A DNA stretch of 64,000 nucleotides from Burkholderiales bacterium. Lineage in GTDB: Bacteria; Pseudomonadota; Gammaproteobacteria; Burkholderiales; SG8-39. Position numbers and translations under genes: made by a program. The notes beneath the pieces are model-generated. The model searched no databases. It was not told where the DNA came from and was given only the letters and a program-made list of their open reading frames with translations. Where the stretch lies: NCBI GenBank assembly GCA_035632415.1, contig DASQGW010000153.1, positions 4,821 through 68,820 on the forward strand. Reading direction: 5' to 3'. Positions 52,244 to 63,431 of the stretch are shown one piece after another (position 1 is the stretch's first letter; each line of letters starts with the position of its first letter).

Positions 52244-52945
52244 TCAGAGTCCCAGATACGCGCGCTTGAGCTCCGCGTTCGCGAGGAGCTCGGCCGGCGT
52301 GCCCTGGAAGACGATGGCGCCGTTCTCGAGGACGTAGGCGCGATTGGCGATCTCGAGGGACTGGCCGACGTTCTGCTCGACAAGCAGGATCGGCAGTCCC
52401 TCCTTGTTCAGCCGGGCGATGAGCGCAAAGAGCTCCTCGACGGCGACCGGCGAGAGGCCGAGCGACGGCTCATCGAGGATCAGCAGCCGCGGCTCTGCCA
52501 TCAGGCCGCGGCCAATCGCCAGCATCTGCTGCTCTCCGCCCGAGAGCGTGCCGGCGCGCTGGGCCGTGCGCTCCTTCAGCTTGGGGAACACGCTGAACAC
52601 GTGCTCGAGGTTCCTCTCGCGGTTCGCGCGGGCGCGGCGATAACTGCCGAGCTCGAGATTCTCGTGCACGGTGAGATTGGGAAAGACGCGGCGGCCTTCT
52701 GGAACATGGATGAGCCCCGCGGCGACGATATCCGTGTACCGCGAGCCCGCAATACTGCGATCTTCGAACTCGATTGTGCCGGAAAAGGCCGGCAGCAGGC
52801 CGGAGAGCGTGTTGTTGAGCGTGGTCTTTCCCGCGCCATTGGAGCCGAGGAGCGCGACCACTTCGCCCGGGCGGACGGCGAGGTCGATGCCGCGGAGGAC
52901 TTCGACCCGCCCATAGCCGCCGCGCAGCGCCGCGACTTCAAGCAT
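52244..52945 (-). CDS. ABC transporter ATP-binding protein (LivF-like), operon-embedded
   Basis: 233 aa; Walker A GSNGAGKTT; signature LSGGEQQML. Confidence 0.9.
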   Translation of the reverse strand: MLEVAALRGGYGRVEVLRGIDLAVRPGEVVALLGSNGAGKTTLNNTLSGLLPAFSGTIEFEDRSIAGSRYTDIVAAGLIHVPEGRRVFPNLTVHENLELGSYRRARANRERNLEHVFSVFPKLKERTAQRAGTLSGGEQQMLAIGRGLMAEPRLLILDEPSLGLSPVAVEELFALIARLNKEGLPILLVEQNVGQSLEIANRAYVLENGAIVFQGTPAELLANAELKRAYLGL

Positions 52946-53678
52946 AGGCGGCCCTCATGCGTGCGGCGGTTCCATGGCCGAGATACGCCTCGACGACGGC
53001 GGGGTCCGACGTGACTTCGCGCGGCGTGCCGTGCGCGATCAAGCGGCCGTTCGAGAGGACCCACGCCTCGTCCGAGAGGTTCATGACCGCGCGCAATACG
53101 TGCTCGACCATCAGGACGCTGATGCCGCCATCGCGGATGCCACGGATCACCGGGAGCACTTCATCGATCTCCCGCGGGTTTAGGCCGGCGAGAACCTCGT
53201 CGAGCAGCAAGAGGCGGGGCTCGGTCGCCAGCGCTCGTGCGAGCTCGAGCCGCTTGCGACCTGCGATGGTGAGGTTCGCCGCCAGCTTGTCGAGCTGTAC
53301 CGCGAGGCCGACCCGCGCCGCGACGGCTTCGGCTGCGCCGAGCGCGCTCGCTCGCGAAGGATGGCGAAGGTGGGCGCCGACCGCGATGTTTTCGCGCACG
53401 GTCTGGGCACCGAAGGGCTGCACGATCTGGAACGTCCGCGCCATGCCGAGGCGGCAAGCCTCGTGCGGCGGGATGCCGGTGATGTCGCGTCCTTCGAGCC
53501 GGACGCGACCGTGATCGGGCCGGACGAAACCGGAGATCAGGTTGAACACGGTGGTCTTGCCCGCGCCGTTCGGGCCGATCAGGGCCACGATCTTTCCCCG
53601 AGGCAAGGCGAGCGACACGTCGTCTACGGCGGCGAGGCCGCCGAAGCGCACAGAGAGCTTTTCGGCCTCGAGGATCAC
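52938..53678 (-). CDS. ABC transporter ATP-binding protein (LivG-like), operon-embedded
   Basis: In-frame GTG at 53678 ([14 protein letters not shown]) within track ORF 52938..54485. Walker [14 protein letters not shown] overlap with the permease stop. Confidence 0.88.
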
Positions 53679-54703
53679 GCCTTCCGCCGCAGCAGGCCGA
53701 GGACACCGCTCGGCATGAAGGTGATCATGAGCACGAGGAGGGCGCCGTAGAGCATGAGGCTCACGCCCGGCGCGTTCTCGAAGAGCCCGCGCGTGCCTTC
53801 GCCGAGGAGCTGCAGCAGCACGGCGCCGAGCACCGGTCCCCACAGCGTGCCGAGCCCGCCGACGATCGGCGCAAGAAGCGCTTCGATCGAGACCCCCGGG
53901 CCATAGGCGAGCCCGGGATCGATGTACTGGAAATATTGCGCGTAGAACACGCCGCCCAGCGCCATGAGCGCCCCGGAGAGGGCAATCGCGCCGAGCTTCA
54001 CCCGAAAGACGTTCACGCCGAGCGCCGCGGCCGAATCCTCGTTGTCCCGTACGGCTTGCAGCCAGGCGCCGTAGCGCGAATTCTTCAGCCACCAGCCGAC
54101 GACGAGGCCGGCCAGCACGAAGGCGAGGATCACGTAGAGGTAACCTGTTTTCGTGGCGAACTGGAAGTTCTCCGGCCCGGCCTTCAGCTTCACCATGATG
54201 CCCACGCCTGCGCCGGTAAAGTCCACGTTGTTCGCGAGTATGCGGAACACTTCCGCGAAGGCGAGGGTGACGAGCGCGAAGTACGAGCCGCGCAGCCCGT
54301 AGCGGAAGGAAAGGGCGCCGATGAAGGCGCCGACTGCAGCACCGAGCAGGAGAGCCGCGGGCAGCGTCGCCCAGGCATTCCATCCGAGCTTCGCCTGCAA
54401 GACGGCAGCCGCATAGGCGCCGGTGCCGAAGAACACCGCATGGCCGAAAGAGAACTGGCCGCCGAAGCCGGCGAGGATGTTCCATGCGAGGCCGAGCAGC
54501 GCCGTATACAGGACCATGATCGCGGCGTTCAGCAGGAAGCCCGAGCTCGCCACCATCGGCAGGGCCGCGACGAGAGCTCCAAAAACCGCGATGGGAACGA
54601 GCTGCTTCAGGCGCGCGCTCCGAAGAGGCCCTGCGGGCGAAAGAGCAGCACCGCGATGAAGATGAGGAAGATGCCGATCTGGCCGAGCGATTCGCCGAGC
54701 CAC
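53675..54703 (-). CDS. ABC permease (LivM-like), operon-embedded; start uncertain
   Basis: [23 protein letters not shown] motif. The GTG at 54703 would overlap the upstream permease by 97 nt. The first TM helix ([15 protein letters not shown]) begins right after a CTG at 54610 that forms a CTGA overlap with the upstream stop. Confidence 0.8.
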
Positions 54704-55479
54704 AGGCTACCCACGGACTCCACCACCCCTATGAGGAGCCCACCGACCAGCGCGCCCGCGAAGCTGCCCATCCCGCCCAGCACGACGATCGTGAAAGCGA
54801 TCAGGACGAAGCCGTTGCCGACGGTCGGATTCACGTAATAGGCGGGCAGGAGGAAGCAAGCCGCTGCGCCGAGGCAGGCGAGACCGATGCCGAAGCTCAT
54901 CGCGAAGACGTGCTCGACGTCGATGCCGACCAGCCGGGCACCCTGCCTCTCCTTGGCGCACGCGCGTATCGCGCGGCCGAGGTCGGTGGTGCGCATGATG
55001 GTGAGCAGCACACCGGCCGTGGCGCCGGCGCCAAAGAAGGCCACGATCTTGGGCAGCGCGATCATCGCCGGGCCGATCGGCACCGTGGTGAAGGTGTACG
55101 CGGTGTCGATGGTGCGCGTGTCCGACTTGAAGAGGAAGAGCGCCAGGTTCTCGAGCACGATGGCGAGCCCCAGGGTGACGAGCAGGATGTTCTCGTCGCG
55201 CCCGTGGCTCGCCACGCCGATCACGTAGCGGTAGGCGAGGTACCCCGCCGCGAACATGGCGGGCACCATGACGACGATGGATACGTACGGATCGAGGCCC
55301 AGGCTCCTCTGCAGGTAGTACACGCCATAGAGCGCCATCATCAGCGCCGCGCCGTGCGCGAAGTTGATGATGTGCAGCACGCCGTAGATCAGCGTGAGCC
55401 CGAGCGCGATCAGCGCATAGACCGCCCCGGTCGTGAGTCCGTTAAGGAGCGAGGGCCATAGGATCGAGAGCTCGAACAA
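54607..55479 (-). CDS. ABC permease (LivH-like), operon-embedded
   Basis: 290 aa; LNGLTTGAVYALIALGLTLIYG and INFAHGA motifs. Confidence 0.9.
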   Translation of the reverse strand: MFELSILWPSLLNGLTTGAVYALIALGLTLIYGVLHIINFAHGAALMMALYGVYYLQRSLGLDPYVSIVVMVPAMFAAGYLAYRYVIGVASHGRDENILLVTLGLAIVLENLALFLFKSDTRTIDTAYTFTTVPIGPAMIALPKIVAFFGAGATAGVLLTIMRTTDLGRAIRACAKERQGARLVGIDVEHVFAMSFGIGLACLGAAACFLLPAYYVNPTVGNGFVLIAFTIVVLGGMGSFAGALVGGLLIGVVESVGSLWLGESLGQIGIFLIFIAVLLFRPQGLFGARA

Positions 55480-55485
55480 TCCCGC

Positions 55486-56697
55486 TCAGCCCTTCCACGG
55501 GAACGAGGGCTGCGTCTCGGCGTAGGTCTTGGGCAGCACGACTTTGATGTCGTTCTTCAGCACCTGCATCATCAGCGGCTGCGCTCCCTGGTTCTGACCG
55601 TTCACGAACTTGGTCGGGCCGTACGGCATGAAGTGCTTGTCCCAGGTCGAGCCTGCGAGCGCGTTGACGATGTCGTCGCGCTTCGTCGACTTCGCCCGCT
55701 CGATCGCGTCGGCGAGGAGGTGCACCGCCGAGTAGTTGAGGTATACCTCGTAGGTGAAGAACTGATCCTTCATCGCGTCGACGCGCTTCTTCAGCGCCCA
55801 GGCGCGCTTGTCCTTCGGGTTGAACCAGTGGTTCACGTCGAGCACGCCGTTCGCGGCGTCGGAGAATTCTCTTACGAACTTGTACGACGAGGCGGCGCCG
55901 CCGAGCACCGAGTAGATCGCCTTCGGCACCACGTTCTGCTGCTTCATCGTGCGCACGAAGAGCGCGTACTCGTTGTAGTAGTTCGCCGGGATGACGATGT
56001 CGGGATTGACCGCCTTCACCCGCAGCACGATGTTGTTGAAGTCCCGCGTCGGGTTGGCGTGCTTGATCACTTCCTTGACTTCGAAGCCGAGGTGCGGCAG
56101 CTGCTGCGAGAGGAGGTTCGCCGTCCCCGTGCCGAAAAGCGACTCCTCGTGCACGATGACGACGGTCTTGGCCGGCTTGCCCGCGAGGTTGTTGAGCAGG
56201 ACGAGGTGGTTCATCGCCGTGTCGGCGCAGACCTTGTAGCCGGGGGCGAAGCGGAAGGTGTTGGCAAGCCCGCGCTCGACGATCTGGTCGGCGACGCCGA
56301 CGTCCACCACGTGAGGGATGTTGTACTTCGCGGCAGCCTGCGTCGTGGCGAGGCAGATGGCGGAGGCATAGGCGCCGACGATGGCGGACACGCCCGCCTC
56401 GTTCATCTTCTCGACTTCGGCGGCGCCGATTTCAGGCTTGGACTGCGCGTCGCCCAGCACCGCCTCGAGCTTGGCGCCGCCGAGCGACTTGATGCCGCCC
56501 GCCTTGTTGATGTCGTCGATCGCCATCTGGGCGCCGAGGCGCGAGAGGTTTCCGGAGTAGGCGAGGAAGCCGGTCACCGGATGCAAGACGCCGACCTTGA
56601 TGGCCTGGCCCTGGGCGCGTACGCCGAGCGGCAGCGCCGCGGTCGCGGCCAGCGCGGTGGTATTGATGAGGAACTGCCTGCGGTTCGTGGTGTTCAT
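55486..56697 (-). CDS. ABC substrate-binding protein (LivK-type fold) with twin-arginine-like signal
   Basis: 403 aa; N-terminus MNTTNRRQFLINTTALAATAALPLGVRAQG; IKVGVLHPVTGFLAYSG type I PBP pattern. Confidence 0.88.
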   Translation of the reverse strand: MNTTNRRQFLINTTALAATAALPLGVRAQGQAIKVGVLHPVTGFLAYSGNLSRLGAQMAIDDINKAGGIKSLGGAKLEAVLGDAQSKPEIGAAEVEKMNEAGVSAIVGAYASAICLATTQAAAKYNIPHVVDVGVADQIVERGLANTFRFAPGYKVCADTAMNHLVLLNNLAGKPAKTVVIVHEESLFGTGTANLLSQQLPHLGFEVKEVIKHANPTRDFNNIVLRVKAVNPDIVIPANYYNEYALFVRTMKQQNVVPKAIYSVLGGAASSYKFVREFSDAANGVLDVNHWFNPKDKRAWALKKRVDAMKDQFFTYEVYLNYSAVHLLADAIERAKSTKRDDIVNALAGSTWDKHFMPYGPTKFVNGQNQGAQPLMMQVLKNDIKVVLPKTYAETQPSFPWKG

Positions 56698-57059
56698 TTC
56701 TTCTCTCCGTTTAGTGATTCGCCCATGTCATTCCATACCTTCTGGTCCACGAGCTTGCCTGCGCGCACCGTGAACCGGTCGATGAAGCGGATGCCCTCGT
56801 ACCTGCTGCCGTCGAGGCGCTCGCCGTACAGCGTGCCGAAACAATAGACGACGTCGCCGGCGATGTCGAAGCGCTCGTAAGCCTTGCGCGCGCTGCGGTA
56901 GCGGCCTTTTGAGAACTCGACCAGGGCCTCCAGGGAATCGAAGCGCCGGCCGCCCGGGAAGACCATGTGGAATCCCGGGGCGAGGCGATCGCGCGCGGCG
57001 GCGAGATCGCGGCGCTCCATCGCCGCAAGATAGCTCTTGACTGTCTCCTCGGGCGTCAT
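56694..57059 (-). CDS. SnoaL-like / NTF2-fold protein
   Basis: 121 aa; N-terminal TPEETVKSYLAAMERRDLAAARDRLAPGF pattern typical of SnoaL/NTF2-like proteins. 4-nt overlaps on both sides. Confidence 0.65.
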   Translation of the reverse strand: MTPEETVKSYLAAMERRDLAAARDRLAPGFHMVFPGGRRFDSLEALVEFSKGRYRSARKAYERFDIAGDVVYCFGTLYGERLDGSRYEGIRFIDRFTVRAGKLVDQKVWNDMGESLNGEKK

Positions 57060-57832
57060 CCCTGCTCGATGAATTCCTTCAGCGCCTTCTCGGGCGGTTT
57101 GACGTAGTTGGAGCGCCGGCTCACCGCTGCCATGCCGGCCGACTCGCGCAGCCTGACGGCCATCTCGGCGCTCTTCGCGATCAGCGTGATGCCGTTGACG
57201 ATCGGCGCTCCTTCATAGTTCGCGCCGCGCTCGGAGCCGAAGAGCATCATCGGCAGTCCGCCTGCGGGCACGATGACGTCGGCACCCGCATCGAGCAGGA
57301 TGCGGCACTCGCGCTCCCAAAGCGGTTTCAATTTCTCGAGACCCTTGGGAGAGGCGAAAGCGTCGATGAAATCGGCGACCGTCGCCTGCACGGCGCGCAC
57401 CCCGACGACCCGGCTTTGCAGACCGTAGCGAATGACCTGATCTTCGTGCCATGGGATGAACACAGGATTGATCGTGATCAAGCCGAGCTTGCGTCCGAGC
57501 GTGCACGCGTGGAAGAGCGTCGTCTCGCCCAGCCCGAGCACCGGGATGTCGACCACCGATTTCACCTCGGCGAGTCCCGCATCCTGGAAGTGGGTGATGG
57601 CCACCGCCGCGTAGCCTTGCTGCTCGGCCTGCACGGCGTTCTTGATCAGGTTGCGCCCGATGCGGTACTCGGTGATCGCATGCGTGGTGGTCGCCGGCGG
57701 TGTCGTCGTATGGAACGTTGCGGAGAACTCGGGGTCCAGGATGCTCGTCAGGTGCGCCTCGACCTTCGCGATATACGGTGCCGTGAACTGCCGATCGGTG
57801 GCGCCCTGAAACCACAACTTGTATTTGCTCAT
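57056..57832 (-). CDS. Asp/Glu/hydantoin racemase-family protein (divergent)
   Basis: 258 aa. AVAITHFQDAGLAEVKSVVDIPVLGLGETTLFHACTLGRKLGLITIN follows the hydantoin-racemase pattern (xIACFGDPGLxAxRExxxxPVxGIxEA), and DVIVPAGGLPMM matches the second active-site stretch. Confidence 0.7.
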   Translation of the reverse strand: MSKYKLWFQGATDRQFTAPYIAKVEAHLTSILDPEFSATFHTTTPPATTTHAITEYRIGRNLIKNAVQAEQQGYAAVAITHFQDAGLAEVKSVVDIPVLGLGETTLFHACTLGRKLGLITINPVFIPWHEDQVIRYGLQSRVVGVRAVQATVADFIDAFASPKGLEKLKPLWERECRILLDAGADVIVPAGGLPMMLFGSERGANYEGAPIVNGITLIAKSAEMAVRLRESAGMAAVSRRSNYVKPPEKALKEFIEQG

Positions 57833-58611
57833 TTACTCTCCACAAGGGCCAATACGCGCAGCGGACTGCCGCTGCCATTGCGGATTTTCAACGGCGCCGC
57901 AAGAACGATTGCGCCGGTTGCCGGCAGCTTGTCCAGATTCTTGAGGCATTGCAGACCGTAACGCCCCGCGCCATGCATGTAATAGTGGCAAGGATAGGGC
58001 GGCCGCAGATGATAGGCCTGGCCCGCATCGGTGCCGATCGATTCGGTGCCGAAGCCGAGGATGTCGCGCTCCTCGACGAGGAAGCGCACCGCGTCCGTGT
58101 CCGGCCCCGGCGTGTGCTGGCCGGTCTCGTCGTAGTTCTGGTAGGCGACCGGGTCGCCGCTCTTCTTCGACCAGTCGGTGCGCATCAGGACCCAGGAACG
58201 CGGCGAGATGCGCCCGTGGCCCTTTTCCCATTTCAGCAGGAAAGGCTTGGTCAGCAGGAAGTCCGGATCCTTCGCCGCCTGCTTGCTGCAATCGATGACG
58301 AATGCCGGCCCGATGAAGCGCTCCGGCGCGATGCTGTCGACCGCATTGTTGGGCAGGTCCTTGCCGGAGACCCAGTGGATCGGCGCGTCGAAATGCGTTC
58401 CGGTGTGCTCGCCGCAGGAAAAATTGTTCCAGTACCAGGCCGGTCCGCGCTCGTCGTAGTGCGAGACCTCTTCGATGCGGAAAGGCCACGCCTGGCCCAT
58501 CTCCGGCGGCAGCGAGATGGAAGGAAACTCGGGCGAGAGCGTCTCGGTGAGATCGATGACCTTGATCTTTCCGGCGGTCAGCTCTTTGGCCAGCTGCGCG
58601 AGCGCGCTCAT
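57829..58611 (-). CDS. cyclase-family metal hydrolase (kynurenine formamidase/isatin hydrolase-like)
   Basis: 260 aa; signature HTGTHFDAPIHW (HxGTHxDxPxH). Confidence 0.82.
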   Translation of the reverse strand: MSALAQLAKELTAGKIKVIDLTETLSPEFPSISLPPEMGQAWPFRIEEVSHYDERGPAWYWNNFSCGEHTGTHFDAPIHWVSGKDLPNNAVDSIAPERFIGPAFVIDCSKQAAKDPDFLLTKPFLLKWEKGHGRISPRSWVLMRTDWSKKSGDPVAYQNYDETGQHTPGPDTDAVRFLVEERDILGFGTESIGTDAGQAYHLRPPYPCHYYMHGAGRYGLQCLKNLDKLPATGAIVLAAPLKIRNGSGSPLRVLALVESK

Positions 58612-58613
58612 GG

Positions 58614-58720
58614 TCTTGACCCCCTGACAAGGGGGTCGTGAGCGGCAGGCGAGCGGGAGGTTTGATTTTCGAAAACCCCCCGGCGCTTCGCGCCACCCCC
58701 CTTATCAGGGGGGCAATAGC
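58614..58720. repeat. nested-palindrome intercistronic element, copy 2
   Basis: CCCCCTGACAAGGGGG (58620-58635) ... GGCGAGCGGGAGG ... GAAAAC ... CCCCCCTTATCAGGGGGG (58696-58713). Same orientation, same flanks (TCTTGAC ... GCAGAA) and same architecture as the copy at 12134-12258. Confidence 0.8.
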
Positions 58721-58726
58721 AGAACC

Positions 58727-59959
58727 TCATGTGGAGAGTTCCTTTTCCAAAGCCTTCGGATTGTCGCGCCAACGGGCGAGCCACTCCTGCGCCACATCGC
58801 CGGGATACACGTCTTCGACCCCTTCGCGCAGCGCCTTGACTACGGCGTTGGCCAGCGCTGCCGGCGCGACCTTCGGCGGCGGCAGGAGCTGGTTCCACTC
58901 GTCGTCGAGCGGGCCGGGGAAGACGTTGATGACCCGGACGCCGGCAGGGCGCATTTCGGCGCGCAGGCACTGCGACAGCGAATGCGCCGCCGCCTTCGAT
59001 GCCGAGAAGGTGCCGTGTGGCGGGAAATTGGCGAGTGCGTAGATCGACAGCACATTGACCCAGGCGGTGGCGCTCGCAAGGCCGTCGGCGCCGCGGCCGC
59101 GCATCGCAGGGCCGAATTCCTGCGCGAGGCGCAGGAGGCCGAAGTAGTTGACGTCCATCTCGGCGCGCGCCGTGTCGACGCCCGAGCGATTGCTGATGCC
59201 GTAGGCGCGATGGTATTCGGCATTGTTGACGAGGATGTCGACCTTGCCGCCGATCTCGGCCGCGACCTCGCGTACGTTCTTCGAGTCCGTTACATCCAGC
59301 GGCAGGAGCGTCACCTGCTTGATCTTCTCCAGCTCGTCGAAGCCGGCAAATTTCTTCCAGGGCTCGGCATGCCCGACCCAGATGAGGTCTGCGCCGGCCG
59401 CGGCGAGCGCCTTGACGAGCGCTTGTCCGGCTGCGGTCTTGCCGTCAGTGACGAGCACCTTGCGAAACTTCGGGTCGCAGGTGAATTCGCGAAGCTGGCG
59501 ATCTTCAGCCATGTTTTCCTCCTTGCCGGGCAGGGCGACCATGACGGCCTGGCCGGCGCGGTCGAGCTTCGCCGCCACCGTGACCTTGCCGGGCGCTTGT
59601 GCCACCCGTTCATGCAAATGCGCGACCACCGTGGGGCCGCAGTCGAGCTTCACGAGCCCCAGCCGCCACGGCAGGCGCTCGCGAAAGAAGAGATCGTTGC
59701 TGTGGTGAAGCACCGTATCGGAGAGCAGCTCGCCGGTCTGCGGCTGCGGCTTCCAGTCCAGCCGGATGGAGAGGCACTGCTGGCACGCCTCGCGCGGCGG
59801 GTACTGCACGGTGCCGCAATCGCGGCATTGCTGCAGCTCGAAGCGACCGAGCGCGGCGGCAGCCGTCAGGCCGAGCGCGATGCGGCTCCGCGCCGCGGGC
59901 GGCAGCGTCGGCTGCCGTGTACGAAGGACTGGATTCTTTCTCTTTGGCCGCTCTAGCAC
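58727..59959 (-). CDS. DUF35 (Zn-ribbon + OB-fold) fused in frame to an SDR-like domain
   Basis: In-frame GTG at 59959 within track ORF 58727..61027. DUF35 part: GRFELQQCRDCGTVQYPPREACQQCLS (CxxC...CxxC) plus an OB-fold. There is no stop before MAEDRQLREF...VLVTDGKTAAG...NNAEY...SIYA...GTFSASKAA (SDR fold with FxxxK instead of YxxxK). Confidence 0.75.
   Translation of the reverse strand: MLERPKRKNPVLRTRQPTLPPAARSRIALGLTAAAALGRFELQQCRDCGTVQYPPREACQQCLSIRLDWKPQPQTGELLSDTVLHHSNDLFFRERLPWRLGLVKLDCGPTVVAHLHERVAQAPGKVTVAAKLDRAGQAVMVALPGKEENMAEDRQLREFTCDPKFRKVLVTDGKTAAGQALVKALAAAGADLIWVGHAEPWKKFAGFDELEKIKQVTLLPLDVTDSKNVREVAAEIGGKVDILVNNAEYHRAYGISNRSGVDTARAEMDVNYFGLLRLAQEFGPAMRGRGADGLASATAWVNVLSIYALANFPPHGTFSASKAAAHSLSQCLRAEMRPAGVRVINVFPGPLDDEWNQLLPPPKVAPAALANAVVKALREGVEDVYPGDVAQEWLARWRDNPKALEKELST
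59518..59524 (-). promoter_or_regulatory. internal Shine-Dalgarno (AAGGAGG) 5 nt upstream of the in-frame ATG at 59512
   Basis: Minus strand reads ctgcccggcAAGGAGGaaaacATGgctgaa, exactly at the DUF35/SDR domain boundary. Confidence 0.55.
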
Positions 59960-61113
59960 GAAACAATGGCGGCGCCCGAGCCGAGGCCGCGGTCGAAGTT
60001 GATCATGCCGAATCCGCTCACGAGACCGAGTTTCGCATCCTTGACCTGCCGAGCCCCCGCGGCGCTTGTGAGCTGGCGCAATGCCTCCACCATGCCGAGC
60101 GAGCCGCCCGCGGCGCCGGCCTGGCCCACGGAAAGCTGGCCGCCGGATGTGTTGAGCGGGAAGGAGCCCTCGCAGGTAAAGGTGTGGTTGCGGATGAATT
60201 CCGGGCCTTCTCCTTTCGCGCAGAAGCCGAGATCCTCGATCTGCATGAGCGAGATCACCGGATAGTCGTCGTAGGTCTGGACGAAGTCCATGTCCTCGGG
60301 CGCCGCGCCAGCCTGCTCGTAGAGGTCGGCGCGATCGAGCACCCAACCGGCGCGCATCTGCACCGGGTCGGAAGCAAAGGCGTTGTGGCGCTCGATCGTT
60401 CCGAGCAGCCGCGCATACTGCAGGCCCAATGCCTTCGCCCGTTGCTCGCTCAGCACCAGGAACCCGTCGGCGCCGGCGCAGGGCATCACGCAATCGAAGA
60501 GATGCAGCGGATCGGCGATCGGCCGTGCGCCCATGTACTCGTCCAGCGTGAGCGGCTTCTTGAAAAGCGCATGCTCGAACTTGAGCGCATTCGCACGCTG
60601 AGCCACGCACAGCTTGCCGAAGTCCTCCCGCGTCGCCCCATGCGTTCGCATGTAGTACGCCGTGAGGAAAGCAAAGCTCGCATTCGGCCCGCCGGCACCA
60701 TAGGGATACACCGCGTCGCGGGCGAACTGGCTGAAGTTGGCGAGCGTGAGGCGAAAGGAGTCCACATGGTTCGTGTCGCCGGCAATGCAGGCGACGACAT
60801 CGGCATCTCCGGCCTGCACCGCTCGCGCGGCGCGCCGGAGCATCACCACGCCGCTCGCGCCGCCGAAAGGCACGTGGTCGAGCCAGCGCGGCGAAAGGCC
60901 GAGATGCTGGGTCAGGCCGATGGCGGTGTCCGGGGCGAGCGTGAAGCTCGAAACGGCGAGGCCGTCGATGTCGGCCTTGTTGAGCCTGCTTTGCTTCAAC
61001 AGGTCGGAGAGGCACCTTGCCAGCCACCAGTGCGCCGAGCGAATTGAATAGCGCACATAGGGAACGGTAACGGGCACGGCCACGGCGACACCTTCGTAGC
61101 TACGCCGGGTCAT
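59953..61113 (-). CDS. thiolase-fold protein, SCP-x/Ltp type (nucleophilic Cys apparently absent)
   Basis: In-frame ATG at 61113 (MTRRSYEGVAVAV) within track ORF 59953..61272. HVPFGGASGVVMLRRAARAVQAGDADVVACIAGD aligns by eye to the thiolase xxxCASGxxA...G...D.V.V.G.E region with Gly in place of Cys. C-terminal NTSGGQLS...GFGMI. ATGA overlap with the ligase stop. Confidence 0.8.
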   Translation of the reverse strand: MTRRSYEGVAVAVPVTVPYVRYSIRSAHWWLARCLSDLLKQSRLNKADIDGLAVSSFTLAPDTAIGLTQHLGLSPRWLDHVPFGGASGVVMLRRAARAVQAGDADVVACIAGDTNHVDSFRLTLANFSQFARDAVYPYGAGGPNASFAFLTAYYMRTHGATREDFGKLCVAQRANALKFEHALFKKPLTLDEYMGARPIADPLHLFDCVMPCAGADGFLVLSEQRAKALGLQYARLLGTIERHNAFASDPVQMRAGWVLDRADLYEQAGAAPEDMDFVQTYDDYPVISLMQIEDLGFCAKGEGPEFIRNHTFTCEGSFPLNTSGGQLSVGQAGAAGGSLGMVEALRQLTSAAGARQVKDAKLGLVSGFGMINFDRGLGSGAAIVSC

Positions 61114-62579
61114 TTCCGTCGTTTGCGGTCGCGCAGATCGAAGCTCTCCGCGGGGTTGAGCGCGAAGTCGGCGAGCTTCGCCTTCTGCACCTTGTTGGTG
61201 GAGGTCACGGGAAGCTCCCGCAGGAAGGCCACATGCCCCGGCGCCTTGAAGTAGGCGAGGCGCTCGAGGCACCAGTCCTGGATCGACAGCGCGGTCTCGC
61301 GACTGGCGCCGGTCCCGGGGTTGAGCACAACGCAGGCCATCACTTCCTCGTCGCGCACTTCATCCGGCCTGGCGATCACGGCGACCTGGGCGATCAGCGG
61401 ATGCCCGGCGAGCGCGGCCTCGACCTCGAGCGCGGCGATGTTCTCGCCCGCCCGGCGGATGATGTTCTTGCGGCGATCGACGAAGTGCAGGCTGCCATCG
61501 GGTCCGCGGCGCACGCAGTCGCCGGTATGGAACCAGCCCTCGCGCCACGCTTGCACGGTCGCCTCGTCGTCTTTCAGGTAGCCGGAGAAGAAGCCACGCC
61601 GGGGATCCGGGCCGGCCTGGCGCACCAGCAGCTCGGAGTTTCCATCGATGGAAACTTCCAGGCCCGGCGGCTCCCTTCCGATGCACCGCGTGCCCACATG
61701 CCGCGGCTCGCGGCTCGCCGCGATGAGCGCGCCGCCTCCGGTTTCCGTCATTGCCCAGGCTTCGATCAGGGGAAAGCCGAAACGGGCTTCGAAAGCAGCG
61801 TGATCTTTCGGATTGGCGTTCGCGCCGTAGCCGAAGCGCACCCGATGCGCACGGTCTTGGACGCTCGGCGGAAGCTGGAGCAGGATCGCGGGCATCACGC
61901 CAAGATAGTGGACGATGGTCGCGCGCGAGTCGACGACGTCGTTCCACCAGGTCTTCGGATGGAACCGATCGAGCTGCACCACGCAGCCGGCGGCAAGGAT
62001 CATCGCCGTGGTCGAGACGGCGAGCGCGTTCATATGGAAGAGGGGCAGCGGCGTGATGAGCCGCTCCTCGCCGAAGCGCAGCGCGCACAGGCCGCCTTCA
62101 TCGACATAGCGCCGGCCGACGTTCAGGAAATAGAAGTTGCCGAGCAGGCAGCCCTTCGGCTTGCCGGTGGTGCCCGAGGTGTAGAGGAGGGCGCATTCCT
62201 CGGCCTTGCCGCGTGCCGGGGCCGCCGGCGGGTCGAACCGCACGAGCCTGTCGGAGTCGACGACGAGCGCGGCCTCGCTATGCGCAACCACGTAGTCCGA
62301 TTCATTCTTCTGGTAGTCCGGATTCATCGGCACCACGGCGATGCCGAGCGAGTTGAGCGCGAGGAAGTGCAGCAGGAACTCGGGGCAGTTGGGTAGCCTC
62401 AGGGCGACGCGATGTCCGGGCGCGTAGCCCTTCCCAGCGTACAGGCGAGCGATCTCTGCGATGCGCTCGTGCGCCTGCGCATACGAGAGCTCGACCTTCT
62501 GCGGCGGGAAGTGCAGGAATGGCTTGGCGCCGTACGCGCGGGCGGTTTGCTCGAACGCCGAGAAGACCGTCGTCGTCAC
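61110..62579 (-). CDS. acyl-CoA synthetase / AMP-dependent ligase (first gene of the long operon)
   Basis: In-frame GTG at 62579 within track ORF 61110..63404. LYTSGTTGKPKGC, AMTETGG, TGDCV...DRRKN, TSTNKVQK motifs. Confidence 0.85.
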   Translation of the reverse strand: MTTTVFSAFEQTARAYGAKPFLHFPPQKVELSYAQAHERIAEIARLYAGKGYAPGHRVALRLPNCPEFLLHFLALNSLGIAVVPMNPDYQKNESDYVVAHSEAALVVDSDRLVRFDPPAAPARGKAEECALLYTSGTTGKPKGCLLGNFYFLNVGRRYVDEGGLCALRFGEERLITPLPLFHMNALAVSTTAMILAAGCVVQLDRFHPKTWWNDVVDSRATIVHYLGVMPAILLQLPPSVQDRAHRVRFGYGANANPKDHAAFEARFGFPLIEAWAMTETGGGALIAASREPRHVGTRCIGREPPGLEVSIDGNSELLVRQAGPDPRRGFFSGYLKDDEATVQAWREGWFHTGDCVRRGPDGSLHFVDRRKNIIRRAGENIAALEVEAALAGHPLIAQVAVIARPDEVRDEEVMACVVLNPGTGASRETALSIQDWCLERLAYFKAPGHVAFLRELPVTSTNKVQKAKLADFALNPAESFDLRDRKRRK

Positions 62580-62657
62580 CGGACCGGATGTTAAGATGCC
62601 GCGCGCTTGCCAGACAACGGGACTTCGCGCGGCCGGCGATGAGCCACTAGGAGAAGC

Positions 62658-63431
62658 ATGTCCACCGTTGGAATGACACCCGGCAAGGAATTGGCAGGCA
62701 AGGTGGCGATCGTGACCGGCGCTGCGCGCAACATCGGCCGTGCCATCGCGCGCTCGCTCGCCTTGGGCGGCGCCGCCGTCATGGTGAACGCCAAGACCTC
62801 GCGTCCGCAGGCCGAGGAAACGGTGGCGATGATCCAGCGGGCAGGCGGCACGGCGGCGGTGCATATCGCCGACGTCACCGACCCGCGTGCCGTCGCCCAG
62901 ATGGTCGAAGCGACGCTCAAGCAATTCGGACGCATCGACGCTTTGGTGAACAACGCCGCGGTGCGCATGGAAACGCCCTTCGGCGAGATCAAGCTCGAAG
63001 ACTGGCGCAAGGTCATTTCCATCGTCCTCGACGGCGCCTTCCTCTGCACGCAGGCCTGCGTGCCGCACATGGCGAAGGCGGGAGACGGCACGGTGATCAA
63101 TATCGGCGGCCTCACGGGGCACCGCGGGGCCACCGGGCGCGCACATGTGATTGCCGCCAAGGCGGGGCTCGCGGGAATGACCAAGGCCCTGGCGCTCGAC
63201 CTCGCGCCGCAGCGCATCACGGTGAATTGCGTGGTGCCGGGCACGATCGAGAGCCAGCGCGGCCTGCCCGGCGCACCCGAGCGGCCGGCGCATCGCGCAG
63301 CGCCGCCGCCGATCGGCAGGCGGGGCGAACCGGAGGAGATCGCCGCGATGGTGCGCATGCTTTGCGGCCCGGACGCACGGTACATCACCGGCCAGGCGAT
63401 CCACGTCAACGGCGGCGGATACATGCCGTGA
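62658..63431 (+). CDS. SDR-family protein (FabG-like fold, atypical active-site region)
   Basis: 257 aa; AGGAGAA Shine-Dalgarno upstream; cofactor motif VTGAARNIGRAIA; NNAA. The expected Ser...YxxxK region reads INIGGLTGHRGATGRAHVIAAKAG. Confidence 0.8.
   Translation: MSTVGMTPGKELAGKVAIVTGAARNIGRAIARSLALGGAAVMVNAKTSRPQAEETVAMIQRAGGTAAVHIADVTDPRAVAQMVEATLKQFGRIDALVNNAAVRMETPFGEIKLEDWRKVISIVLDGAFLCTQACVPHMAKAGDGTVINIGGLTGHRGATGRAHVIAAKAGLAGMTKALALDLAPQRITVNCVVPGTIESQRGLPGAPERPAHRAAPPPIGRRGEPEEIAAMVRMLCGPDARYITGQAIHVNGGGYMP

Follow-up and report, generated by a model that had tools for sequence, protein, structure and literature searches.

What does a protein do in which a DUF35 module, otherwise found docked onto thiolase-fold enzymes, continues in frame into a short-chain dehydrogenase/reductase (SDR) domain whose classical motifs are missing? 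The question is raised by a gene at 58727..59959 on the reverse strand of a 64,000-nucleotide stretch of DNA (contig DASQGW010000153.1 of assembly GCA_035632415.1, hereafter the window) from an uncultured soil Burkholderiales bacterium. The gene is an orthologue of iadH from the iad (indole-3-acetic-acid degradation) operon, and, taking the explanation as a whole, we consider it probable that IadH combines a DUF35 anchor with a decayed SDR domain and serves the thiolase-fold protein IadG, a predicted retro-aldolase, within an iad cassette. The gene and the parts of its product are as follows.

58727..59959 including the stop codon, (-): iadH orthologue, DUF35 (Zn ribbon and OB fold) fused to an SDR-like domain, 410 aa, from translation and Pfam
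59768..59863, (-): four-Cys zinc ribbon, residues 33-64, zf-ChsH2 (PF12172), E 4e-11
59528..59755, (-): OB-fold part of the DUF35 module, residues 69-144, from Pfam OB_ChsH2_C and AlphaFold2 (AF2)
58730..59461, (-): SDR-fold (Rossmann) domain with degenerate motifs, residues 167-410, from Pfam and Foldseek
59426..59449, (-): remnant dinucleotide-binding motif, TDGKTAAG in place of TGxxxGxG, with Asp172 at the first Gly
58994..59008, (-): FSASK in place of YxxxK, residues 318-322, with Phe318 and Lys322

The translation runs through 410 codons without an internal stop and contains zf-ChsH2, OB_ChsH2_C and adh_short by Pfam, which upholds the in-frame fusion described in the initial annotation; the motifs named there (CRDC/CQQC of the zinc ribbon, VTDGKTAAG and FSASK) were all located at their positions in the protein. 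The ribbon is the rubredoxin-like four-Cys type of DUF35/ChsH2-type modules, with Cys45 and Cys48 in CRDC (residues 45-48) and Cys59 and Cys62 in CQQC (59-62), and all four are invariant, 91/91, in an alignment (A1) of diverse IadH orthologues at 41-97% identity. OB_ChsH2_C (PF01796) covers residues 69-121 (E 1e-10), and AF2 places the beta-strands of an OB fold over residues 67-144 at a predicted local distance difference test score (pLDDT) >90. With residues 1-149 as query, the best PDB match is ChsH2-DUF35 (6ok1_B, 2.6e-7, aligned over 34-128), followed by archaeal DUF35, Shy-DUF35 and PhlB. The SDR fold is identified by adh_short (PF00106) at residues 167-354 (E 1.5e-25), and the PRK08264-type NCBIfam score of this domain falls below its cut-off. 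The AF2 model of the 410-aa protein has a pLDDT of 90.7 and a predicted template-modelling score (pTM) of 0.89, the latter suggesting a fixed packing of both halves and not a loose tether.

The identity of the gene follows from its sequence and its neighbours. The window protein is 72% identical to IadH of V. boronicumulans over its full length (residues 5-417 of P0346) and shares its four Pfam domains, and the Variovorax protein likewise carries TDGKTETGQA, HGTFSASK and the Met of the linker. The genes around it are also related to those of Variovorax (IadF 50%, IadG 70%, IadH 72% and IadI 72% identity) and lie on the same strand.

61110..62609, start approximate, (-): iadF orthologue, AMP-forming acyl-CoA synthetase, Pfam AMP-binding and AMP-binding_C
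59953..61113, (-): iadG orthologue, thiolase-fold protein and predicted retro-aldolase partner, Pfam Thiolase_C_1
57829..58611, (-): iadI orthologue, isatin hydrolase of the PF04199 'cyclase' family, from Pfam and a PDB match

The order AMP-ligase, thiolase-fold gene, fusion and PF04199 'cyclase' (iadF-G-H-I) is conserved in 70+ loci; in many of them Rieske oxygenase alpha and beta genes lie upstream and the cyclase has a canonical SDR beside it. In the window the GTG start of the fusion at 59959 overlaps the TAG stop (59955-59953) of the thiolase-fold gene, an arrangement typical of translational coupling, and the link between these two genes made in the initial annotation is strengthened by the finding that the adjacency with overlapping stop and start codons is kept in 70+ loci. 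On the V. boronicumulans chromosome (CP023284) the genes run iorA, iorB, Fer2 reductase, Rieske alpha, Rieske beta, AMP-ligase, Thiolase_C_1, zf-ChsH2+OB+adh_short (417 aa), Cyclase, adh_short, solute-binding protein and penicillin amidase, so that iadH lies in the order iadA-B-C-D-E-F-G-H-I-J-K2. The published iadA...iadL table has this order and lists iadH (ATA56146.1) as a 'short-chain dehydrogenase/reductase', iadG as a 'thiolase' and iadI as a 'cyclase family protein' (PMC12852158), so that the locus is iad. The order MarR-iadCDEFGHIJ was found on replicons of Ruegeria pomeroyi and Roseibium aggregatum. IadI of the window matches isatin hydrolase A over its full length (5NNB, E 1.6e-112; 4J0N, 9.5e-86). 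A Rieske oxygenase, a CoA ligase, a DUF35 protein and an SCPx-type thiolase also occur together in the ipf (ibuprofen) cluster; this identity was set aside on the exact iad synteny and the isatin hydrolase. The gene family is thus known and named, public annotation (the JGI name) lists both domains, and the initial annotation's impression of an undescribed fusion is not supported; what the window adds is a new orthologue in a truncated iadFGHI cassette.

The function of IadH has been approached genetically in V. paradoxus CL014, the sole strain with such proof, where it is needed for converting indole-3-acetic acid (IAA) to anthranilate, and where deletion of iadF, iadG, iadH or iadI each lowers anthranilate and leads to accumulation of C10H9NO4, that is dioxindole-3-acetate (PMC12633357). 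For IadG ('ketothiolase') and IadH ('alcohol dehydrogenase') the assigned roles go back to annotation alone (PMC12633357 and its 2026 version). The papers found that name IadH mention neither the DUF35 module and its OB fold, the missing motifs and the internal start signal discussed below, nor an aldolase role.

Inspection of the partner suggests a chemistry other than that of a thiolase. The best PDB relative of IadG is CtSal, a bile-acid side-chain aldolase (9MYR_A, E 1.3e-52), followed by the thiolase-fold protein 4U4E (E 8.7e-42) and the steroid side-chain aldolase TcLtp2 (6OK1_A, E 5.5e-37), and true thiolases (BbsB, archaeal thiolase) score far below the aldolases. Gly85 of IadG aligns with the nucleophilic Cys of 7yvy and with a Gly of 9myr and 6ok1, and is Gly in 73/73 orthologues. 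Tyr281, the first residue of YDDY (281-284), aligns with the catalytic-base Tyr of the aldolases, Tyr294 of Ltp2 (YDHF) and Tyr302 of Sal (YDCY), and GQAG aligns with the region of Sal Gln352 (GQSG); the catalytic roles of the Ltp2 and Sal residues are taken from PMC12329534. Gly85, Tyr281, Asp283, Tyr284 and Gln331 are invariant in the 73 orthologues, and Variovorax IadG shows these motifs as well. Since the thiolase nucleophile is missing and the aldolase motif is present as YDDY, IadG appears to be a retro-aldolase of the Sal/Ltp2 type. The iad papers label it a ketothiolase (EC 2.3.1.16), despite the Gly at the nucleophile position in the IadG sequence.

The nature of the accumulating acid bears on the same point. 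The beta-hydroxyl of dioxindole-3-acetyl-CoA is tertiary and not oxidisable to the 3-ketoacyl-CoA that a thiolase needs, and its retro-aldol cleavage gives acetyl-CoA and isatin. Applied to this locus by inference, this would make IadG the enzyme that converts dioxindole-3-acetyl-CoA to isatin and acetyl-CoA, in conflict with the published 'ketothiolase plus alcohol dehydrogenase'.

In the SDR domain of IadH, VTDGKTAAG occupies residues 170-178 and the Phe318 codon, TTC, lies at 59008-59006. At the positions of the classical Asn-Ser-Tyr-Lys tetrad the window protein has Asn271, Ser305, Phe318 and Lys322, so the tetrad is incomplete, and NNAG reads NNAE with Glu248, leaving neither TGxxxGxG nor NNAG intact. 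The 91 orthologues of alignment A1 are distributed over these positions as follows.

Catalytic Tyr position: F43 T12 H10 M8 S7 A7 Q2 Y1
Catalytic Lys position: A34 K32 Q11 N5 and others
Catalytic Asn position: N67 E12 G7 and others
Catalytic Ser position: S78 P13
Gly of NNAG: mostly E, R, D or Q
First Gly of TGxxxGxG: Asp172 in 90/91; the second Gly position is variable

In a separate set of the closest relatives, 69 aligned full-length orthologues from GTDB loci, conservation of the region is strong but the catalytic positions vary, with F in 56 and Y in 13 at the Tyr position and K in 64, Q in 3 and M in 2 at the Lys position. IadH of R. pomeroyi has 0 of the four tetrad residues, and in Roseibium IadH the Gly-rich motif is wholly lost. 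The claim of the initial annotation that the SDR part lacks the classical catalytic and cofactor motifs holds well beyond the window, as the catalytic positions drift freely across the 91 orthologues, Tyr being present in 1/91. The Asp in the dinucleotide motif, the change of NNAG to NNAE and the lack of conservation of the catalytic Tyr and Lys point to a loss of redox function. The domain looks like a pseudoenzyme, and a fold that is conserved while its catalytic residues are unconstrained speaks for a structural or ligand-handling role outside redox chemistry, in which cofactor binding may persist. As a separate observation, the IadH copies of a group of gammaproteobacterial loci (L045 and relatives, see below) retain Tyr at the catalytic position.

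These changes appear to be derived. The top Foldseek match of the SDR domain is 5U4S, an uncharacterised B. cenocepacia SDR crystallised with NADP, which matches window residues 174-397 with a target-normalised TM-score (TMt) of 0.92-0.95 at 33% identity; it has a canonical VTGADRGLG, NNAG, Asn, Ser and Lys, but Leu at the Tyr position (LSASK). As 5U4S binds NADP without the Tyr, stand-alone, cofactor-binding members that lack it exist in the PRK08264-like subfamily. Two clusters of related fusions, P0160 and P0165, are fully canonical (TGxxGGIG, NNAG and YCASK) and adjoin the same kind of Cys-less YDDY partner, together with a CoA-transferase and a TctCBA transporter. Because 5U4S, P0160 and P0165 retain canonical TGxxxGxG and NNAG, we regard the motif changes of IadH as derived: DUF35 and SDR were already joined before the decay set in, and the degenerate branch is the Iad clade. 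An ancestral pairing of a dehydrogenase with a true thiolase was ruled out, as the thiolase-fold partner in the loci L083 and L084 is also Cys-less with YDDY. These two JGI metagenome contigs (L083 2949-9574 and L084) carry a Cys-less YDDY thiolase-fold gene, a DUF35-SDR fusion with TGANGGIG, NNAG and YCASK, a family-III CoA-transferase and a TctCBA tricarboxylate transporter; judged by its motifs, this cassette is probably an uncharacterised acid-degradation module with a still-active fused SDR.

In the mechanism that we propose, IadF would ligate CoA to dioxindole-3-acetate (3-hydroxy-2-oxindole-3-acetate), and the N-terminal DUF35 module of IadH would dock onto IadG, as other DUF35 modules do on thiolase-fold enzymes. 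IadG, acting as a Cys-less retro-aldolase of the Sal/Ltp2 type with YDDY and not as a thiolase, would in this complex split the tertiary beta-hydroxyacyl-CoA into acetyl-CoA and isatin, possibly with Asp283 as the general acid. IadI, the isatin hydrolase encoded directly downstream, would then open isatin to isatinate, and a later Variovorax intermediate, C8H7NO3, has the formula of isatinate. The SDR-fold domain of IadH would have lost its classical redox function, presumably together with NAD(P) binding, and would be kept as a rigidly packed structural (scaffold) or ligand-handling module of the complex.

A further proposal, compatible with this mechanism, concerns the boundary between the two domains, where the initial annotation had described a ribosome-binding site followed by a start codon and had suggested that a free SDR protein could also be made. 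The Shine-Dalgarno (SD) element and the ATG were confirmed at 59524-59510, with a predicted internal product of 261 aa.

59510..59524, (-): candidate internal translation start, AAGGAGG (59524-59518), aaaac spacer and the ATG of Met150 (59512-59510)

The duplex of AAGGAGG with the anti-SD sequence, -11.4 kcal/mol, is the strongest of all codon positions in the gene, and on this account the signal exceeds chance. It is also widely kept: an SD-like element of <= -6 kcal/mol, 5-10 nt upstream of the Met150 ATG, is present in 65/70 sequences (the 69 GTDB-locus orthologues and the window) as AAGGAG, GAGGAG or GAGGTG, within the top 0-2% of codon positions and with a median of -8.5 kcal/mol. Real starts sampled at the same loci have weaker medians (fusion -2.7, iadG -2.9, iadI -5.5 and racemase gene -6.4). 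Distant alphaproteobacterial copies often retain the element (Paracoccus -12.1, Ruegeria -8.2, Neorhizobium -6.6, Sulfitobacter -6.3). Met150 itself is found in 67/69 GTDB-locus orthologues and 90/91 sequences of the diverse alignment, and Azospirillum and Agrobacterium have Leu in its place. Codon choice follows the same pattern, with Lys146 encoded by AAG in 44/44 (77% gene-wide) and Glu147 by GAG in 59/63 (63% gene-wide), the most extreme bias of all conserved Lys and Glu columns. The 45-nt segment around the ATG is weakly folded, -8.0 against a gene median of -13.9 kcal/mol, and falls in the least-structured quartile in 90% of the orthologues.

The site therefore bears, at the level of sequence, the hallmarks of a translation-initiation region, and ribosomes may also start at Met150 and yield a free 261-aa SDR-like protein. 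Against this, the Lys-Glu pair is conserved at the amino-acid level, and purine-rich, GC-poor sequence is to be expected of a charged linker; distant family members have Leu here, so that the Met could be kept for a hydrophobic structural role; the phylogenetic relatedness of the sequences makes the counts overstate the independent support; and no natural split version of DUF35 and SDR was found among the representatives checked. Of the earlier suggestion, the conserved, strong, codon-biased and weakly folded SD-ATG stands, and we regard the free product itself as plausible, with the arguments for and against it in balance. In known complexes the DUF35 modules occupy opposite ends of the thiolase-fold dimer, and dimers are the usual state of SDR folds; it is a speculation that free chains could supply dimer partners for the DUF35-tethered SDR domains. 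A more elaborate version, a programmed two-product gene in which the full-length chain coupled to iadG and the free pseudo-SDR assemble on the YDDY retro-aldolase as a metabolon passing isatin to isatin hydrolase, seems to us improbable; in it, the dead dehydrogenase may be a stoichiometry-tuned scaffold or a product-handling module.

Several observations weigh against the mechanism with a retro-aldolase and a redox-dead IadH. In IadG, Asp283 stands at the position of the essential Cys304 of Sal and of a His in Ltp2, and the second Tyr of Ltp2 is missing, the Tyr344 position falling in GQAG as in Sal, so that in the alignment with Ltp2 and Sal neither known catalytic acid (Ltp2 Tyr344 or Sal Cys304) is found in IadG. 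In IadH of the window and of its close relatives Asn271, Ser305 and Lys322 are kept, and Tyr occurs in 13/69 close orthologues, hence residual activity in this clade is possible; moreover 5U4S, a Tyr-less SDR of the same subfamily, still binds NADP. The window is without iadCDE and iadJ, so that the physiological substrate of this particular cassette is one that we infer. Finally, the sole product detected from Variovorax IadF, IadG and IadH together was C8H7NO2 (isatin + 2H, dioxindole), from which its authors postulate that IadH carries out a reduction (PMC12633357 and its 2026 version).

The last point leads to the alternative of an SDR domain in IadH that, though atypical, still works as an oxidoreductase, reducing isatin to dioxindole after removal of the side chain. 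C8H7NO2 accumulates both on expression of iadCDEFGH+J and in the delta-iadI strain (PMC12633357). The residues retained in the window and the Tyr of some orthologues, especially in the beta/gamma clade, would fit such an activity, as would the NADP of 5U4S, and the canonical P0160 and P0165 beside the same Cys-less partner make an active ancestor that processed a carbonyl product plausible. However, among orthologues from the same operon the losses of Tyr, Lys, Ser and Asn occur in many combinations, and the invariant Asp172 and the frequent Glu248 are acidic substitutions within dinucleotide-binding motifs. Reduction would also take away the substrate of the adjacent isatin hydrolase, and a compound with the formula of isatinate, C8H7NO3, is found downstream. 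Isatin is an activated ketone, reducible by unrelated cellular reductases when IadI is absent, and such adventitious reduction in delta-iadI would be a simple alternative source of dioxindole. We therefore consider an active reductase unlikely, and favour the retro-aldolase mechanism with a non-redox IadH domain.

An origin of the fusion in an assembly error or a frameshift, or in a DUF35 stop codon lost only very recently, has nothing in its favour except the start-like signal at the domain boundary and can safely be dismissed, because one uninterrupted tblastn segment spans both domains in 69 species-level genomes, four-domain proteins of 407-420 aa form hundreds of clusters and occur in complete genomes and cultured strains, and the linker residues between DUF35 and SDR are themselves conserved among the aligned orthologues. 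The initial annotation had considered both a misassembled junction and a lost stop codon, and neither survives the same full-length open reading frame (ORF), kept at identities as low as about 40%, in Alpha-, Beta- and Gammaproteobacteria.

The first protein search returned solely proteins of 395-420 aa with all four Pfam domains. A species-level scan, with one genome per species, found 79 loci, in 69 of which a single tblastn segment at 57-94% identity covers both domains; the hosts are metagenome-assembled genomes (MAGs) of Burkholderiales, Steroidobacterales, Pseudomonadales, Xanthobacteraceae and other Alphaproteobacteria. Exhaustive HMMER searching of the representatives at 50% identity gave 258 proteins with E <= 1e-30, and full-length fusions reach down to ~36% identity. 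With the single ORF in ~70 species-level genomes and thousands of metagenome proteins, the fusion is neither an artefact nor recent. Among cultured carriers the gene lies on replicons of Ruegeria pomeroyi DSS-3, Roseibium aggregatum, Sulfitobacter, Paracoccus, Agrobacterium and Azospirillum, and many Variovorax genomes also carry it. No genuine natural split was found among the checked representatives that start at Met150 or end at the linker: P0181, a seemingly stand-alone half, comes from a 1.6-kb contig on which the OB fold is encoded in frame further upstream, P0170 and P0145 lack a start Met and look like fragments, P0157 looks frame-shifted, and the other such halves, where checkable, lack a start Met or are cut at a contig edge.

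Annotation of the iadH orthologue is inconsistent on three replicons. On pR76 of Agrobacterium pusense (L090) the listed coding sequence has just 292 aa (locus 652-1530), though an intact ORF of 447 codons with the Zn ribbon exists, and in Azospirillum thermophilum (L086) and Neorhizobium sp. SOG26 (L088) no gene is listed under the match, which may reflect an incomplete PLSDB gene table.

The surroundings of the cassette differ from those of the complete operon. No homologue of iadC, iadD, iadE or iadK2 was found anywhere in the 64-kb window, and IadJ has generic SDR similarity of 30% only; iadCDE and iadJ may lie elsewhere in the genome. The sister loci of the window clade (L003 and others) likewise have iadF-G-H-I without iadCDE or iadJ. 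Downstream of iadI and upstream of iadF the window carries the following genes.

57056-57832, (-): Asp/Glu/hydantoin-racemase-family gene, after iadI
56694-57059, (-): SnoaL-like gene
55486-56697, (-): solute-binding protein of a Liv-type ABC transporter
54607-55479, (-): permease of the Liv-type ABC transporter
52938-54485 and 52244-52945, (-): ATPases of the Liv-type ABC transporter
62658-63431, (+): FabG-like SDR, divergently transcribed, NCBIfam PRK12826.1-2 above cut-off

Sister MAGs have instead a TRAP transporter (DctP/DctM) between the atypical SDR and iadF. The context suggests uptake of an already oxidised auxin catabolite, for example dioxindole-3-acetate, and not of IAA. The divergent SDR has an intact TGAARNIG, and in the alignment with FabG (4dml) its catalytic Asn/Ser/Tyr are Val/Gly/Val, with just the Lys left (motifs VLDGAF, NIGG and RAHVIAAK). 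This pattern is kept in 10 sister MAG loci at 74-85% identity, and by its motifs the protein is a second atypical or pseudo-SDR beside the cassette.

A scan of 58400-63000 for promoters and terminators gave nothing above the shuffled expectation. The iadH-iadI spacer (58612-58726, (-), 115 nt) contains G/C-run inverted repeats, CCCCCCTGATAAGGGGGG, then GGCGCGAAGCGCC and GGGGGGTTTTCG, uncalled by the terminator scan; as iadH and iadI abut or overlap in many sister loci, it looks like an inserted element or a local hairpin. The iad loci of Pseudomonadales and Ca. Azophilus MAGs (L045 2197-5185 and relatives) have a class I/II aminotransferase gene directly upstream of the Rieske alpha/beta pair, and in gammaproteobacterial loci of the L045 type iadJ lies between iadH and iadI, an order unlike that of Variovorax.

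In the literature searched we found no description of IadH as a DUF35 anchor with a decayed SDR, of the Sal/Ltp2 aldolase signature of IadG with YDDY, or of the conserved internal SD-ATG of iadH. The iad pathway is being engineered into root bacteria for auxin control, with the IadF, IadG and IadH steps assigned from database names alone. If the proposed mechanism is right, the published scheme of a ketothiolase plus alcohol dehydrogenase with reductive removal of the side chain needs revision: side-chain removal would require no NAD(P)H, and isatin, not dioxindole, would be the true intermediate. YDDY would then join the Ltp2/Sal aldolases as a third active-site variant, and DUF35 modules would gain a cargo of a new type, the pseudo-SDR, which can be compared with relatives that have canonical motifs. 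With its conserved internal start, iadH is a clean candidate for a gene that yields fused and free forms of one domain in bacteria, and the truncated iadFGHI cassette points to some soil bacteria scavenging auxin catabolites that are already oxidised, and not auxin itself.

The closest known system is the iad locus of Variovorax (V. paradoxus CL014; V. boronicumulans ATA56146.1), with the same IadH architecture, TDGK and FSASK, the linker Met and the flanking iadF, iadG and iadI, whereas the window lacks iadC, iadD, iadE, iadJ and iadK2 and has the Asp/Glu-racemase-family, SnoaL-like and Liv-type ABC genes. With the PRK08264-type SDR 5U4S, IadH shares a PGPxD...PPPK segment and the missing catalytic Tyr (Leu in 5U4S), but 5U4S is a stand-alone protein with canonical VTGADRGLG and NNAG and bound NADP, in contrast to TDGK and NNAE.

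Ltp2-ChsH2 (6OK1) and Sal-Shy (9MYR), the best PDB matches for both proteins, have in common with IadG-IadH a thiolase-fold partner with Gly at the nucleophile position and the Tyr of YDxx, an adjoining four-Cys DUF35, and a comparable substrate, a beta-hydroxyacyl-CoA barred from a 3-keto intermediate (PMC12329534). They differ in that the DUF35 of the steroid systems is C-terminal on a MaoC hydratase, whereas by Pfam that of IadH is N-terminal on an SDR-like domain without MaoC; in the motif, YDHF or YDCY against YDDY without the second Tyr of Ltp2; and in the substrate, steroid against oxindole. A flexible tether has been described for Shy-Sal from an AlphaFold model, whereas AF2 predicts a compact two-domain IadH (pTM 0.89).

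In the Bbs system, which is among the PDB matches (7pxp and 7pcs), the DUF35 protein BbsA sits on a thiolase-fold enzyme and an inactive SDR of that pathway, BbsC, is retained with a structural function (von Horsten 2021 and Weidenweber 2022, as summarised in PMC10818641). On that summarised account DUF35 and pseudo-SDR are separate proteins in two complexes and not, as in IadH, one polypeptide; BbsB retains thiolase chemistry, whereas the partner in the window looks aldolase-like; and the paralogue with which BbsC pairs, BbsD, is active. The window encodes no active SDR partner, whereas complete iad loci have an adjacent active-type SDR, IadJ (YSATK). In Sulfolobus acidocaldarius a DUF35 protein mediates the association of a ketothiolase with an SDR ketoacyl-CoA reductase (bioRxiv 10.1101/2024.07.05.601840); this system is archaeal and biosynthetic, its SDR is bound non-covalently, and SDR and thiolase are both active, in contrast to the covalent fusion of IadH. 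The attachment of DUF35 thus varies among these systems: ChsH2 and Shy are fused to a MaoC hydratase, BbsA, PhlB and archaeal DUF35 are stand-alone, the Sulfolobus ketothiolase/DUF35 pair binds an SDR non-covalently, and in IadH the module is fused to what looks like a pseudo-SDR.

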